Part shown: positions 1,641-8,277 of the stretch, in pieces
Position numbering within the stretch: position 1 is the first letter of the stretch
Layout: the number at the start of each line of letters is the position of its first letter
Source: a virus
Lineage: Duplodnaviria > Heunggongvirae > Uroviricota > Caudoviricetes
Reading direction: 5' to 3' (one strand)
DNA: 40,314 nucleotides
Virus record (IMG/VR): IMGVR_UViG_2563366990_000017
Span: 1 to 40,314 of that record
Position numbers and translations under genes: made by a program
Notes under the pieces: model-generated
Seen by the model: only the letters and a program-made list of their open reading frames with translations
Told to the model about the DNA's origin: nothing
Databases searched by the model: none

Positions 1641-3569
1641 TCAATTCGATAGAGTAACTGAAAGATGAGAGCCAGCTATAACAGTTAATGTATTCCCAGC
1701 CCTGTTATCTATGGTAAAAGCTCCATTAATGAAATCAGTAGAAACTGAGGCAACTACATTTAAAGTAACACTTCCATTAACATCAGGAAGAGTGAATTGC
1801 ATAATATTGCTGCCATTTGGAAGTATAGTACCACTTGGCGCAGTAATTCCTATTACTTGCGTCGTGCTTCCAGCACCACCAAGGTAAGAAATGTTTATAT
1901 TTATTGAAATTCTACTACCTTTAGCGATTGTCATCTGCAACTGATTTATATTTGAACCTATTGCTACTATCTTGTTAGAAGATACAAAATCATTTTTTAT
2001 TGAAAAAACAGGTGTAGCAACACCGATGACTGGTACGTTTGAAAGCTTAACAGGCCTTGGAAGTGATAAAGCCTCCCCTGCTCCTGAGTATGAAAAGTCT
2101 GATATTGAACAATTACCACCATCGGTGCCAGAAAACAATATTCCAGAGGTGTGTGAAGAGTCTGTGCTTATATCAGAAAAATGAATATTTGAAGAACCAT
2201 TACCAACAGTTGCTACAACGTGTCCTGTATTAGTTGTAAACTTCATACCAATAACATCAACTCCAGATATATTATTGCCAATGGCAAAACACACCCCACC
2301 TCCCCCCTTGCAGTAGGTTATCTCACCGCTAAATTTTGCATGACACAATCTCTCGATAGTGGCGTTGTTAAACTTAACCCTACCTCCTATGACTGTATTA
2401 ACATTAATTTCTCTACAATGAGTTGTATTTCCCTCTCCAAAATACATAGCAAATCCAGTATTTGAGTTATTTCCTATGAATCCACCATTGACAGTTAACA
2501 CATATATATCAGAGACATCAAATGTTCTTTCGAAATTATCTATTGTGCAATCGGTAAAATGCCAACCCTCATTATAATAAGGGCCACCGGTTGCAGTACT
2601 ATAAATGCCAATTCCAACAGTATCAGTAGCCGATGTCGCCCCAAATACAATGCTCTTATTACAAGCCAACTCTACTGTTTTCCCTGATGAAACAATCCCA
2701 TTTACGGTATAAAACATGCAGGAATCAATAAATATTTGACGAACTGCTTTTTTTAACAAAAGCGCATATGTAATCATTGAAGATGATACATGAACACCGT
2801 AAAGTCTTATCTGTTTAATATAGTCTTCATTGCTAGGTGTGTCGCTATCACCTTCAGCCTCTAAGAATGCACTTGCCGTTCCTGTAACAATGCAGCTGCC
2901 GCCCCAAATTGTTAATCCGATATTTTTACCATTATACTTAAATATAGGAGAACTACCTGTAGAAGCTGTTAACTTTGATCCGCCAAGATAAATAACCCTG
3001 CCATCAGGTATATTTATTGTTCTTTCAATAAGGTAGTCGGTAGGTTCCATATATACAATTTCACAATCATCAATTGCCATCTGAATAGCCTCGGTTATGT
3101 CTGAGGACTGTGAAATATACATTTCTGGTGTTACATACTTTATTGAATATTTAATTGCATTCTCAATTGTACCATATTTATCTATACCTATTAATGATGC
3201 TCCTGATGTGCTTGAAAGTCTTTGCTCCAGCTGATCAGGGTCATACTTCAGCACATTAGGAAAATAGAACTGCTGCGCACCATATGCATCATAAACAGCC
3301 ATAGAATGGCCTTGCACGGTAACGAATTTGGCAATCTGTCCGTTATATACTGGATACCCAGCGGCATTGATGACGATTGGCTGTGCAACAGGAACGTGAG
3401 AACCATCTTCGTTCTCTACATAAACCTGAATTTGGTTTTCAGGATTTACCGGGTCAGTGTCAATTTTACCGATATAAATTTTTCCATTGGCTACGGCTTT
3501 AAAAGAACGCGCCATAGTGAAGAGTTGCGAAGGCATGCTCACTACAACATTGGCTGTAATGTCTGTCAT
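1641..3569 (-). CDS. Tailspike protein (P22 gp9-like head-binding domain plus divergent beta-helix receptor domain)
   Basis: 642 aa with ATG at 3569 and GGAG RBS. N-terminal ~110 aa ([11 protein letters not shown]...[22 protein letters not shown]...[12 protein letters not shown]...NVLKYDPDQ) closely resembles the P22 tailspike head-binding domain. The rest is AT-rich, N/S/T/G/I-rich repeats typical of a right-handed beta-helix. Confidence 0.85.
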
Positions 3570-3669: not shown

Positions 3670-4005
3670 TCAGTAGTTATGTACTGAAGGAGGTAATTCT
3701 TTATTCTTAAGTCTCATCCATGCGGAAAGATTCGTTGGTCCGTCTGGCTCATTAATATCAACATCTCGTGTATGGTTGATTAAAACATCTCTCGCCATTC
3801 CGATAACATACGAGAACTCATGACCGTAGTCGTAGCATCTGCCGGAATAGTTCGATTGAATTTGTTTTAATGCCGGATACAGTTCACGGAATAATGCCTG
3901 TGAACGGTTGGCATAATCCCATAGCCATACAAGGCTGTTTGCTTCTTTTGCAGAAAGCTCGTTTGCTTTCTTCTCTTGTTTGCCGATAAACTCGCCTTCA
4001 AGCAC
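3670..4005 (-). CDS. Hypothetical protein (111 aa)
   Basis: ORF begins 15 nt after the ant stop but with a GTG start (4005-4003) and a weak RBS. No recognised domain. Confidence 0.4.
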
Positions 4006-4020
4006 TACCCTGTGGATGTA

Positions 4021-4548
4021 CTATACGGCCAGCGGGATTTGTTCAATTGAAAGTTCATCAATGCTGTCAATACCAAAACGCTGATGAACCATATTGTATG
4101 CATCGTCATAGCGAAGTCCTTTCTTTCCTACCAGCATGTTTACTGCATCGCGTAGCGGCGTTCTTTCCTCAACAGTGGTTTTCTTGCCTTTCACATACTC
4201 GCCATGTTTGCGAATTGAAGGTAGAACTTCTGCTGTTACCCACTTGCGGAATTTGTGCGGGACCGAACCTTTATTGACAGCATCGCGGCAGCGCAGAACC
4301 AATGTATACATACCTGATTCGCTAACAATGCTTAGATTCTGCTCACCACCAAGGGTGTAACTTAAAGTTACTCCCTTTTCATCGTCATCAAGTGCAGTAA
4401 TCGCCTTGCGTGAGTTAGTCAGGGTTAAAGCATCACAAACATCTTTTGCTACAAACCACGGCTCACCGCATTTGTTGATGACGCGGATTTCACTGTCGCC
4501 GAATTTGAAGATGGTGAAATCGTTTTGTGCCTTTGCTATACTTTTCAT
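4021..4548 (-). CDS. ant: Antirepressor, Bro-N domain protein
   Basis: Start moved to the internal ATG at 4548 ([24 protein letters not shown]..., a typical Bro-N start) with an AGGAAA RBS. Sits directly downstream of arc as in the P22 immI operon. Confidence 0.75.
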
Positions 4549-4616
4549 GTCAATATTTCCTAATCCGATTTGTTGATACCGAAGCCCTGACTGTTCCCGC
4601 AGTTGGGGCTTCAACT

Positions 4617-4778
4617 TTACGCGCCAATGCGCCCTTCCTTCTTAAAGCTTTCCATTACTCTCTGATAAATCTCAGAGTTAACAGACCGACCATTCTCTTC
4701 CGCCACCTTGCGTACCAAATCCAATACTTCTTTAGGCCACCGCAAATTGAACTGCGGCATCTTGCTCATTCCTTTCAT
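4617..4778 (-). CDS. arc: Arc repressor (ribbon-helix-helix)
   Basis: 53-aa product [53 protein letters not shown] is near-identical to P22 Arc. Start set to ATG at 4778; the ORF-track N-terminal extension is rejected. Confidence 0.9.
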
Positions 4779-4792
4779 ATTCACCTCACAAT

Positions 4793-4813
4793 ATAGGTCC
4801 ACCGTGGACCTAT
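4793..4813. promoter_or_regulatory. Mnt operator-like palindrome (Omnt)
   Basis: ataggtccaccgtggacctat, a near-perfect 21-bp palindrome in the arc-mnt intergenic region, matching the recalled P22 mnt operator core AGGTCCAC.GTGGACCT. Confidence 0.6.
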
Positions 4814-4820
4814 TGAGAAT

Positions 4821-4841
4821 ATAGTAGAGTGCTTCTATCAT
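4821..4841. promoter_or_regulatory. Arc operator-like site (Oarc)
   Basis: atagtagagtgcttctatcat between arc and mnt, matching the recalled P22 arc operator sequence. Confidence 0.6.
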
Positions 4842-4868
4842 GTCAATACACTAACTTGGAGTGATGGC

Positions 4869-5123
4869 ATGGCTAGAGATGATCCGCACTTTAACTTCCG
4901 CATGCCTTTGGAAGTAAGAGAAAAATTAAAATACAGAGCAGAGTCAAATGGTAGATCAATGAACTCAGAATTGTTGCAAATCGTCCAAGATGCTCTATCG
5001 AGACCATCTCCTGTAAAAGGTTATCGCAATGAAGCTGAACGATTAGCCGAGATGCAGGCTGAACAGTTCAAGTCTGTGGTATTTGAGACACTTAAAAACA
5101 TGTATGGCAAGGATGCAAAATGA
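4869..5123 (+). CDS. mnt: Mnt repressor
   Basis: MARDDPHFNFRMPLEVREKLKYRAESNGRSMNSELLQIVQDAL... closely resembles P22 Mnt. Divergent from arc across the operator region. Confidence 0.9.
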   Translation: MARDDPHFNFRMPLEVREKLKYRAESNGRSMNSELLQIVQDALSRPSPVKGYRNEAERLAEMQAEQFKSVVFETLKNMYGKDAK

Positions 5124-5701
5124 TCGATTACAACCCAGCAAAAAAAGAAATCATCGCAGCTAAAAAGTGCCTAGAGCAGATGAAATCATCTACAAACCAT
5201 GATGATTTTGAAATGCACTGGCGAGAATGTCTTGGGCATATAGAAAAGTCTTTCAGTAAGTTGCTCTGTGCAACAAAGCCGGTTAGTGGAAAATTTAGCA
5301 GCCACTTCAACCAAAAGTTCATGCTTAGAAAAACAGACAAAACACTTGCTTACCTTCACCAAGCAAGAAATGCTGATCATCATTCCACTATGGAAATCTC
5401 AAAACTTGAACCTCCTTATACTACTCTTGGGGCATTTCCGGGAGCAAGAAGCCATTATATTAAAGAGTTAATCATTGATTCAACAGGGAAAATAGCAAAA
5501 TACGAAGGCGACCCTATGATAGTTGAGTTTCATCCAGCAACAACTATGCCTATAACCGTAAGAAACCAAGGCAAAGATTATCCACCTCCAACAGAACATC
5601 TTGGCGAAAAGCTTGTTGATATACATCCATCTGTTCTTGCCTATCTCGGTATACAATTTTATGAAAAATGGATAGATGAGTCGCGTGCAATGTTTAGATA
5701 G
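5120..5701 (+). CDS. Hypothetical protein (193 aa), AT-rich accessory gene
   Basis: ATG at 5120 overlaps the mnt stop (ATGA), so likely co-transcribed with mnt. Markedly AT-rich compared with flanking phage genes. No recognisable motif. Confidence 0.6.
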   Translation: MIDYNPAKKEIIAAKKCLEQMKSSTNHDDFEMHWRECLGHIEKSFSKLLCATKPVSGKFSSHFNQKFMLRKTDKTLAYLHQARNADHHSTMEISKLEPPYTTLGAFPGARSHYIKELIIDSTGKIAKYEGDPMIVEFHPATTMPITVRNQGKDYPPPTEHLGEKLVDIHPSVLAYLGIQFYEKWIDESRAMFR

Positions 5702-5918
5702 TTATTTTTGATAATTTCAAGTATTTCCTCTTGACTTTGATTTACCCAAACGTGATCACACTCATGAAACCAGATTATGCTTCCTGTTTCGCCTTGTGCA
5801 ATATAGGTGATCATGTTTTCATTAACAATTATTACTGAGTTATCATGTGCGCAATTTAGTTTTATCAATTCGCATATCCTATCGTGACAAAGTAACTAGA
5901 AAAACTAAAGAGGTTGGT

Positions 5919-6413
5919 GTGTCTGATTCTATGAGTTACGCTGTGCTAGTTGCCGCAACTCTATTTATGGGGATAGGGTTGCAGATTGCGTGGTTCTTTT
6001 TTTCTAGTTTTATTAAACGCAAAAGAATTGAATCAAGGATATCTGAGATTTCTATTGCTATAGGGAAAAATGCTGAAAATCCAGAGAATGAGGCCTGCGC
6101 ACTGAATTACCTTAAAGAAAAGTTTTCCCCTGAAAAATTTGAAAATAGAATTACTGATGCTCTTGGATTGGTAATATCAGTAATTCATATGCCACTAAGT
6201 TTGCTGATAACAGTGTGGTACTTCGCCATGATCGCCGGAAGAATATTTGGTTTCATGAATATAGAGCCTGTAGTTCTTTGGGTTCCAATGATACTGCAAC
6301 TGTTGTTAAGCGTTGCTATCTTTATTTTTTCTGTTTTTATAAAAATTGTCTTTGGAAGATACCCCGGAGAAGCTAAGGGATTTAATAAAGAATTCATAAA
6401 AACTATAAAATAA
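5919..6413 (+). CDS. Multi-pass inner membrane protein, possible SieA-like superinfection exclusion protein
   Basis: ORF-track start 5847 is GTG with no RBS. Preferred start is GTG at 5919, 5 nt after AAAGAGG (alternative ATG at 5931). Product has about 4 hydrophobic helices ([22 protein letters not shown]; [18 protein letters not shown]; [28 protein letters not shown]). AT-rich. Convergent with gp16, in the position sieA occupies in P22. Confidence 0.55.
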
Positions 6414-6435
6414 ATGCCGTCCTTGGCTTACAGTG

Positions 6436-8277
6436 CTACTGCCGGGTCGCTTCGTTAGCTAAGAGCGGGCGCACGGCAGTAGCAGCCTGATTTAGCGCTC
6501 TTTCATAAGCTGGCGTTCCAGCTTTAGTGTTTGCCAGACGTAAGAGCGCATTCCTTGCTGCTTTGGACTCATACAAACGCATCATTGCACCAAAACCAGC
6601 CTCAAGCCCCATTGATACTCCAAGAGTCGCAGTTGCGCCAATCGTCCTTATCCTGTTGGCTTGTGATTGCCCCGTCTGAGTTACTACATTTGCGGTGTCT
6701 GACCTTGCTGTTTGCTGTAGAACTTCATGAAGAGCATCAAGCTCTTTCATGTGCTTTCCAGAAAAAATAGTGTTGTAAATTTCACCGCCTGACTGAGATT
6801 TCAGCTTATTAACTTCAGTGATGAACTTGGCTGGAGAGTCACCGGCCTTTTCCGCTATTTTGCTGACGTAAGCTGCACGCATAGCATCTTTCCCTTTATC
6901 ATCCAGTGCGCTCCAGATTCGTTTCACGTCAGATGGTTTTCTGCTTAATACAACGGTATTTATAAGTTCAGGACTGGCTTCACTGCTTGCCTTGTTGAGT
7001 TTGTTAGCAATGTTTTTATTAAGCACCTTATTATAAACGTTTGCATAATCGGAATTTGCTTTAAGGTATTTTGCTGCGTCTGACGCACCAAGGTTTTTTG
7101 CAACTGCGTTACGAAGGTCTTTTGACATTGCATTCTCTACCATATTGGTAGCTGCTTTTGCCTGGTTGGGGAAGACCATAGCATCTCCCTGAACATTAGA
7201 TCTAAATGCTGTTCTGTGCTGACGCAAGAGATCAAACGTAACATCCAAATCAGTTGCAGGGTTAGCTAATTCTTCACGTAGGTTACGCAAGGATGTAAGC
7301 AGGCTTTGATTGGCTGAAGTCCCAAGTCGTTCCTGTCTTGCGATCGCTGCATTCAGAGCATTCATGGTATTTGTGGTATCAACTGCGGCATTACCCATTT
7401 TATTGGTGACGTCATTGATAACAGCGCCAGCAGCATCCTTCCGCCCCCTTAACGTGATGGTCAGAGATTTCACCACATCATCCGGGTTGTACTCACCAAA
7501 ACGGTCAAAATAATTACTTACCAACTTACTACGCGTTGCATATTGCTCCGCTCGCTTTGAGCCTGTCCCGAGCAAAGCCCCCTCGGCATCCTGAGTAAGG
7601 CCGCGAGTGAAAGCATTTTTCGGCGGGATAACATCAGATGTCATTGGTGTCACGCCCATCGATTCTGATGTGGCAATTTTCTTCGCCACTTCTGGCGCAA
7701 TATCACCTTTTATAGCCGTTATTCCACGCCCTATTCCCTTTGCTGCTGCGGAAAGAACACCCTGAGCGGCAAGGTTAACTCCGGCATTTTTAGCTGCGTT
7801 TTGTGCGAAATCGCCTTTCTGATTTGCGGCCTCTGCCAGTGATCCAATAGCCATGCTTCCTGCCGTTCCAACTCCTGGAACTAAATACCCACCAATTGTT
7901 TCTCCAGCTTGAGCGTAGGGGTCTGTCGGTCTGTCTACTGGACGATAAACATCATCCAAAACCTTGGGGCCACCAAGCCCCTGACTGATTGCATTAATCA
8001 GACTTGCGCCACCCTGCAATACGTCAAATGGTATGTTTACCAGACCACGACCAGCCTGTTCTGCAATTTGCCCTGCACTTTGACCACCAGTGAGCCAATC
8101 GCCAGCTTGTTGCATCAATGATGGTTCTTCACGTGCTGGTTCATTATTGGCCTGATTAACTGTTTGTTGCTGAACAGCCTGACCAGCAAAATACTCATCA
8201 ATGGCGGTGCCAATATCTTCCGTGCTCGTACCATCAGGGAAGGTAAATGTCTTACCGTTTGCAGTTACTTTCATCAT
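6436..8277 (-). CDS. DNA ejection / internal virion protein, gp16-like
   Basis: 613 aa, Ala/Gly/Gln-rich. ATG overlaps the gp20 stop (ATGATGA). Position and size match P22 gene 16. Confidence 0.8.

Follow-up and report, generated by a model that had tools for sequence, protein, structure and literature searches.

The stretch of viral DNA analysed here, positions 1 to 40,314 of IMG/VR record IMGVR_UViG_2563366990_000017 and hereafter called the window, carries a P22-like prophage of Escherichia coli, and the interval under study lies within the immI region of that prophage, between mnt (4869-5123, plus strand) and gene 16. Two co-directional open reading frames (ORFs) follow mnt on the plus strand, as had been set out in an earlier note on this DNA: the first, ORF193 (5120-5701), encodes a 193-residue member of an uncharacterised family of ~195 amino acids (aa), the second ends at 6413, and both are convergent with gene 16 (6436-8277, minus strand). 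The ATG of ORF193 overlaps the TGA of mnt in the sequence ATGA, which had also been seen correctly. That note took the two ORFs for a single module in which the 193-aa protein works with a membrane protein in superinfection exclusion or abortive infection. The interval is better described as two independent cargo units, one being the known exclusion gene sieA and the other an 866-bp block that carries ORF193 together with a small antisense frame, orf69. With the membrane protein identified as SieA that half of the interval was already known, and the new interest lies in the ORF193/orf69 block and its coupling to mnt.

The placing of the interval in the P22 immI region, in the cargo slot between gene 16 and mnt, is borne out by the sar antisense RNA (4550-4616, plus strand; Rfam RF00262, 71.6 bits, E 2.2e-14), which matches the sar annotated in P22, by arc on the minus strand, by the promoters Pant and Pmnt and by mnt itself. 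Pmnt (4813-4841, plus strand) and Pant (4846-4818, minus strand) were located by a consensus scan, with 10/12 and 11/12 matches respectively, and by alignment offset to P22 (BK000583), and their positions exactly coincide with the annotation of that genome; they are divergent and overlapping and lie with the Mnt and Arc operators in 4813-4846. The product of mnt has the Pfam domains Arc (2.8e-27) and Repressor_Mnt (3.4e-11) and is 76.2% identical to P22 Mnt, the repressor of Pant that is produced in the lysogen. Gene 16 is homologous to P22 gene 16 and encodes an ejection or DNA-transfer protein, annotated as 'DNA transfer protein' in E. coli genomes and representing the target class of SieA. 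On both sides of the slot the window is ~91% identical to P22 (4533-5050 and 5901-6575); the homology breaks off at 5050 and is back at 5901, and 5051-5900 has no P22 counterpart, P22 having there the end of mnt, orf59a, the mnt terminator and the promoter PsieA. The slot is also as variable as had been supposed, its flanks matching 567 E. coli genomes whilst at least 80% of 4600-6700 is found in just 12, with other genes in the slot elsewhere.

Both ORFs are indeed AT-rich, their guanine plus cytosine (GC) contents being 38.7% (ORF193) and 35.2% (the second ORF) against 46.5% for the window, which ranks them at the 8th and 1st percentiles among 582-bp segments. The contrast with the flanking genes is however not unique to them, as mnt (40.4%) and the tailspike gene (37.9%) are low as well; the spacer between the two ORFs has 32.7% GC and gene 16 has 47.1%.

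The ORF193 block and sieA

The second ORF had been viewed as encoding a membrane protein for exclusion with about four transmembrane helices. The role in superinfection exclusion stands, but the gene is sieA itself (type A; 5919-6413, plus strand) rather than an analogue, and a hydropathy scan of its inner-membrane product gives three hydrophobic blocks. The 164-aa product matches the 'SieA-like' family phrog_7745 (3.6e-106) and is 92.1% identical to P22 SieA (91% for the DNA), its gene starts at the same GTG (5919) in the same position beside gene 16, and its translation contains the type-A motif FxRYPxEAxxFNK; homology, position, motif and the roughly three hydrophobic blocks all agree with SieA. 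Leavitt et al. describe this motif as conserved and cytoplasmic in type-A SieA, predict three transmembrane helices for P22 SieA, find that SieA alone is sufficient for exclusion in P22 and place sieA between gene 16 and gene 9 in P22-like prophages (PMC10883804). The SieA of the window would likewise block DNA delivery by P22-like phages, acting alone and independently of ORF193.

The region upstream of sieA in P22 (PsieA, the mnt terminator and orf59a) is replaced in the window by the ORF193/orf69 block, and the transcription signals of sieA therefore differ from those of P22. The plus strand of 5702-5918 has neither a sigma-70-like promoter reaching 9/12 nor a terminator, both of which P22 has, and nowhere between mnt and sieA does the plus strand show a terminator-like site; sieA may be transcribed via read-through from Pmnt. 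A weak promoter candidate can be picked out by eye ahead of sieA (TTCATT-17-TATCAT, ~5818-5846).

The block itself is a mosaic segment (5056-5921) made up of the last ~22 codons of mnt, ORF193, the spacer and orf69. It is ~98% identical across E. coli prophages that differ both in their mnt alleles and in the gene that follows, which is sieA in the window and in strain YA-1, a gene for a 122-aa signal-peptide protein in a second case (phrog_2651; locus L013, 2775-3143) and one for a 105-aa hydrophobic protein in a third (phrog_10450; locus L015, 3303-3620; SCAID URN1). In the window the recombined segments join exactly at the cargo gene's start codon (~5921), and in another E. coli genome the slot holds a 'Rap1a/Tai family immunity protein'. 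Even if ORF193 had no role in defence, the gene-16-to-mnt slot of E. coli P22-like prophages is still shown to be built of independently exchangeable pieces that meet at two places, the 3' end of mnt and the start codon of whichever cargo gene follows. Of 5,426 complete E. coli genomes 21 contain ORF193 DNA (22 places); P22 does not have it, the matches of P22 and of 47 other sequenced P22-like phages being confined to the flanks of the interval, and a tblastn search of 50,697 phage records with ORF193 gave no match.

A joint exclusion or abortive-infection module of ORF193 and the membrane protein has in its favour that the genes are adjacent, co-directional and both AT-rich, and that no plus-strand terminator or strong promoter separates them, so that co-transcription is possible. 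Against this, SieA suffices alone (PMC10883804) and P22 lacks ORF193, the genes that follow the block in E. coli are of three unrelated kinds, and the homologues outside E. coli (in Citrobacter, metagenomic prophages and the other organisms examined) have no sieA neighbour. A search of the neighbours at 84 loci, mostly from soil metagenomes, likewise found no recurring gene save among near-identical contigs. The comparison across P22-like prophages that the earlier note had called for thus upheld the variability of the slot and not a tie to sieA; synteny largely refutes the module, which we regard as very improbable. ORF193 is linked instead to mnt upstream and to the small antisense ORF downstream.

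The link to mnt is seen in three diverged lineages, in each of which a gene for an mnt-type repressor lies directly 5' of ORF193 or its homologue. Within E. coli two different mnt alleles precede the block. In the second lineage, formed by a lambda-like prophage of Citrobacter koseri and a relative from a metagenome, with homologues 60-62% identical to ORF193, the upstream gene is for another Arc-family protein (83 aa) and diverges from an arc-ant pair; the ATGA overlap is found again, and DNA homology to the window starts just 29 nt ahead of the ORF193 start. The third (locus L124) is another P22-like immI region in which a 40%-identical homologue begins 5 bp past an mnt gene with a Repressor_Mnt domain. 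ORF193 also has a ribosome-binding site (AAGGA, 7 nt before the start) and is probably translationally coupled to mnt, with which the operon would begin. Pmnt is active in lysogens, and ORF193, if read from it, should be made in the prophage state. In P22 orf59a occupies the same place, immediately 3' of mnt on the same strand, however it is unrelated to ORF193, has only 59 aa, does not overlap mnt and is followed by a terminator.

Nine relatives with 37-62% identity were examined and all nine lie at the edge of, or inside, the structural module of a phage, the phages being of differing types; those other than the mnt-linked ones, at 37-53% identity, adjoin tailspike, tail or terminase genes and are usually opposed to the structural operon. 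In this respect ORF193 behaves like a moron.

Family and predicted fold of ORF193

The description of the 193-aa protein as uncharacterised holds, with no match in Pfam, NCBIfam or PADLOC and only a family of unknown function in PHROGs. A profile search of 1.84 billion cluster representatives (clusters at 50% identity) returned 1,772 clusters, nearly all of 170-220 aa with full-length coverage and without annotation, which come mostly from soil metagenomes, as environmental stand-alone genes. In sequenced species the family is rare, and a degenerate search for its core motif across 185,579 species genomes turned up a single Alphaproteobacteria metagenome-assembled genome; the same approach applied to metagenomes gave 80 loci. 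The family is a widespread one that is unannotated in any library searched, and its enterobacterial branch is found repeatedly in prophage cargo positions.

A confident AlphaFold2 model of ORF193 built from a 106-sequence alignment (predicted local distance difference test 94.6, predicted template modelling score 0.86) has helices at residues 5-23, 27-55, 60-72 and 74-88, eight strands within 94-154 and a last helix at 170-191, and looks like a five-helix HEPN-like bundle into which, ahead of the last helix, a beta-rich domain of ~80 residues is inserted. Helix 74-88 ends on its C-terminal side in an R-x4-H motif, R83-N84-A85-D86-H87-H88 (5366-5383, plus strand), which is a candidate catalytic site. 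It is part of the first conserved segment of the family, D73-P-L-L-x-Y78-L-H-Q-A-R83-N84-A-D86-E-H88-G; amongst the 106 members R83 is kept in 105 and H88 in all, and residue 84 is N in 94, H in nine and D in two. The signature of HEPN RNases is R-[N/H/D]-x3-H. A second conserved motif, P156-P-T-E-H160-L-G162 (5585-5605, plus strand), stands just ahead of the last helix, with P157 in 105, H160 in 102 and G162 in 98 of the same 106.

As a control, genes for HepT (DUF86) were taken from plasmids and one product was modelled; it has helices at 6-24, 29-59, 61-66, 72-83 and 91-127, with R79/N80 near the end of helix 4 and H84-G85 at its C-cap. The insert of ORF193 aside, the two models have the same helix order with R-N-x3-H in the same place. 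HepT is the toxin of HEPN-MNT systems (PDB 5yep, 7ae2 and 8xdj) and shares with ORF193 the order R-N-x3-H, but it has an MNT nucleotidyltransferase partner, which ORF193 lacks, and it has neither the ~80 beta residues between helices 4 and 5 nor the second motif PPTEHLG. ORF193 does not form a HEPN-MNT system, since the gene upstream is the Arc/ribbon-helix-helix repressor gene mnt and no neighbour is conserved at the 84 loci. Sequence searches of the PDB with two profiles gave nothing, and Foldseek against the PDB and BFVD, a check proposed in the earlier note, gave nothing significant either, the top match being a viral protein without a name (E 9.6e-3). Predicted fold and motif both speak for HEPN membership whilst similarity of sequence or profile does not, and we consider that ORF193 is probably a HEPN-fold protein.

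Stand-alone HEPN RNases with a sensing domain are known in ApeA, DARNA/PD-T7-3 and DS-11, which are activated by infection and cut tRNA or other RNA (bioRxiv 10.64898/2026.01.26.701840; 10.64898/2026.02.22.705581; PMC13092281). ORF193 differs from these in being much smaller, in that its candidate sensor is an internal insert and in having no PADLOC or Pfam match. Identity with DARNA/PD-T7-3 was considered and rejected, as DARNA has 456 aa and another architecture and ORF193 has no match in PADLOC.

Some members of the family depart from the standard length. Four longer members (P0215, 474 aa; P0183, 397 aa; P0177, 311 aa; P0182, 284 aa), in which an additional region is fused on at the N- or C-terminal side, gave no informative Pfam domain, one of them having a sub-threshold match to DUF6941. 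At five soil loci (L018, L046, L076, L084 and L091) the stop-to-stop ORF opens only ~22-25 codons before the R-x4-H motif, and these copies would be either N-terminally truncated or frameshifted, or a shorter variant without helices 1-2. At each of two distant loci of alphaproteobacterial type a Lys/Arg-rich ORF of 57-59 aa runs divergently from the family gene, whose start is 10-12 bp away (L009, 4815-4988, and L125, 4811-4990, both on the minus strand).

The antisense frame orf69

The 217-bp spacer between ORF193 and sieA holds an ORF that the earlier note missed. This is orf69 (5659-5868, minus strand), of 69 codons, which starts at a TTG that AGGA precedes by 8 nt. It overlaps the 3' end of ORF193 by 43 nt and points the same way as gene 16 and the tailspike gene. 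A comparable gene of 65 aa is found antisense at locus L115 (1683-1880, minus strand), where it overlaps by 18 nt the 3' end of a homologue with 53% identity to ORF193, and the two small proteins are 37% identical over 59 aa (pairwise E 3e-6). At locus L123, with a homologue of 47% identity, a 61-aa gene overlaps the 3' end by 9 nt and is the top non-training match to a two-sequence profile among 9,659 six-frame ORFs from all loci. All three have a ribosome-binding site and are co-oriented with the adjoining structural genes, and the orf69 regions have no DNA-level similarity across loci. The conservation of orf69 is not a mirror image of ORF193, because the homologous part lies outside it. 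The antisense ORFs at the 3' ends of homologues in soil loci L010 and L125 were by contrast rejected, since what they mirror is the conserved C-terminal helix of the sense gene, and the orf69 profile does not match them.

The E. coli genomes with the spacer DNA are the very 21 that have ORF193, in the same 22 places, and the copies of orf69 are so nearly identical that substitution counts are uninformative as to selection. Searches with two of the small proteins gave no match in the 50,697 phage records. An explanation of the spacer by an RNA was discarded, there being no Rfam match and folding z-scores of -0.27 and +0.42. We regard orf69 as a candidate partner of ORF193.

Two minor features may be recorded here. 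The 65-aa gene of L115 has a sub-threshold match to the Pfam family FlbD, a small flagellar or swarming family (E 0.018; score 15.1 bits, cutoff 24.7), which is found neither for orf69 of the window nor for the gene of L123. A terminator-like hairpin with a T-run lies at 5345-5367 on the minus strand, inside ORF193 and ~290 nt downstream of orf69; it may mean nothing, as two such sites occur in 4500-6700 and 1.4 are expected by chance.

Possible roles of the ORF193 block

The earlier note suggested that the 193-aa protein may be a new exclusion or defence determinant, and a defence determinant it could be. We tentatively propose, by analogy with known systems and with confidence that falls somewhat below even, that ORF193 is an abortive-infection RNase of HEPN type that is expressed in the lysogen, possibly with an inhibitor expressed late. 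ORF193 would be translated off the Pmnt transcript and hence be present in the lysogen, where the RNase would stay inactive until another phage infects, the beta insert perhaps sensing the infection; the activated enzyme would then cut RNA and abort the infection. In a more speculative step orf69 would be produced after induction and turn ORF193 off, so that the prophage spares its own lytic cycle. The late operon extends from gene 16 through immI as far as the tailspike gene, and as orf69 is in the sense direction of that operon it would be transcribed when self-immunity must be lifted.

The nearest parallel is found in prophages of Staphylococcus aureus, where the HEPN RNase Tha is encoded in the cI operon and is shut off after induction by Ith, the product of a small antisense gene (PMC11087260). 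What is alike, as far as genes alone can be compared, is the placing beside a repressor gene expressed in lysogeny, here in a putative operon, the R-x4-H of HEPN type and the nested small antisense gene in the lytic direction. ORF193, with its ATGA overlap and with Pmnt conserved ahead of mnt, may be co-transcribed with the repressor gene, and orf69 is an overlapping small antisense gene that is co-conserved with ORF193. The two systems differ in that Tha has ~300 aa with a C-terminal HEPN domain and ORF193 has 193 aa and a bundle interrupted by a beta insert, in having no sequence relationship, in that the operon is that of cI in one and that of mnt in the other, and in the promoter of its own that Ith has and that was not seen for orf69. 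The full arrangement, a new two-gene immunity unit of enterobacterial prophages composed of a coupled HEPN-like RNase with a beta sensor and an antisense late inhibitor, seems to us rather unlikely. If it did exist it would have evolved independently of Tha/Ith as their counterpart in Gram-negative bacteria, and ORF193 would give an unannotated family of ~1,800 clusters its first characterised member. To our knowledge an antisense-encoded small inhibitor directed against prophage self-immunity has so far been shown only for the staphylococcal pair. The immI region of P22 is among the best understood phage regulatory regions, and with its known promoter, operator, repressor and antisense late transcription it offers a ready genetic system for asking whether the family is one of HEPN abortive-infection enzymes, how such a toxin is silenced in a lysogen and whether antisense-encoded small inhibitors are a general prophage route around self-immunity on induction.

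A number of results weigh against an RNase of this kind and its inhibitor. On the side of the enzyme, the sole local alignment that hhalign gives between the ORF193 family and a HepT alignment does pair R83, N84 and H88 with R79, N80 and H84, but its probability is only 0.06%. The HepT alignment was shallow (its listed homologues are at least 81% identical to the query), and when two HepT sequences were taken singly hhalign gave nothing significant for the family either. The equivalence of R83 and H88 to the HEPN catalytic pair would moreover follow from one-dimensional helix order in the models. Searched singly against Pfam with hmmscan, the 106 members gave scattered chance matches and no family of the HEPN clan, and PADLOC-DB v2 has no match for ORF193 at E up to 1 (nor for SieA). 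The distant homologues examined lie among housekeeping and insertion sequence genes and not in defence islands. On the side of the inhibitor, orf69 is absent in four contexts with a homologue (the Citrobacter-type loci, L003 and L120) and is present in only three contexts of the enterobacterial clade, the gene of L123 has an E value of 0.46 and is supported by rank and position only, no consensus promoter of its own was found for orf69 in a scan of 4500-6700, and it is unannotated in RefSeq. The conservation of the spacer in E. coli could also be that of a cassette supplying the downstream cargo gene with a promoter and a ribosome-binding site.

Several other accounts of ORF193 were weighed beside the RNase. 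It could be a moron that has nothing to do with RNA cleavage or defence and acts, for example, in lysogenic conversion or regulation, with an R-x4-H motif that binds a ligand or metal and with orf69 as an unrelated late gene or no gene at all; this we hold to be a real possibility, if on the doubtful side. Set against it are the residue preference and placement of the motif (R, then N/H/D, x3, H), which closely match HEPN, the repeated occurrence of the gene at prophage moron positions, the strict co-occurrence with orf69 in E. coli and the protein-level conservation of orf69 across diverged loci.

Less probable, and in our view unlikely, is a pair resembling a toxin-antitoxin system, in which Mnt or an analogous ribbon-helix-helix protein would be the antitoxin or an autoregulator and ORF193 a HEPN-like toxin, the pair stabilising the prophage and not defending against other phages. 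The repressor gene is immediately upstream in a classic type II layout (a 4-bp overlap in E. coli and at the Citrobacter-type loci, a 5-bp gap in L124) and HEPN domains are common toxins. Mnt has however a set role as repressor of Pant and occurs in P22 without ORF193, and its C-terminus is the normal tetramerisation domain (Pfam Repressor_Mnt) with no new tail for binding a toxin. The seven contexts outside immI that have gene calls also all lack a co-directional gene abutting ORF193 upstream, the family being typically monocistronic.

That ORF193 is an accessory regulator of the immI switch, acting on Ant, Arc or Mnt and tuning induction or the maintenance of lysogeny, has its recurrent association with mnt-type genes in the immI regions of three lineages to recommend it, but it is highly improbable given that most members, including prophage ones beside tail or terminase genes, have no immI region nearby, that the 1,772 clusters are mostly environmental stand-alone genes and that ORF193 is intact in the window even though ant has an in-frame stop.

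The ant gene (3670-4614, minus strand) is split by this stop into two ORFs, with the Pfam domains Bro-N and P22_AR_C in the two pieces. The stop is a TAG at 4023-4021, where Ant of E. coli YA-1 has Glu (...IPLAV*YIHRVV in the window against ...IPQAVEYIHRVV), and ant may be an amber pseudogene, which would leave the Mnt/Arc switch idle in this prophage. The N-terminal half of ant is of Bro-N type here and P22_AR_N in a relative. Beyond ant lies the tailspike gene (1641-3569, minus strand), whose GC content is as low as that of the cargo genes and fits a recently exchanged receptor-binding module.

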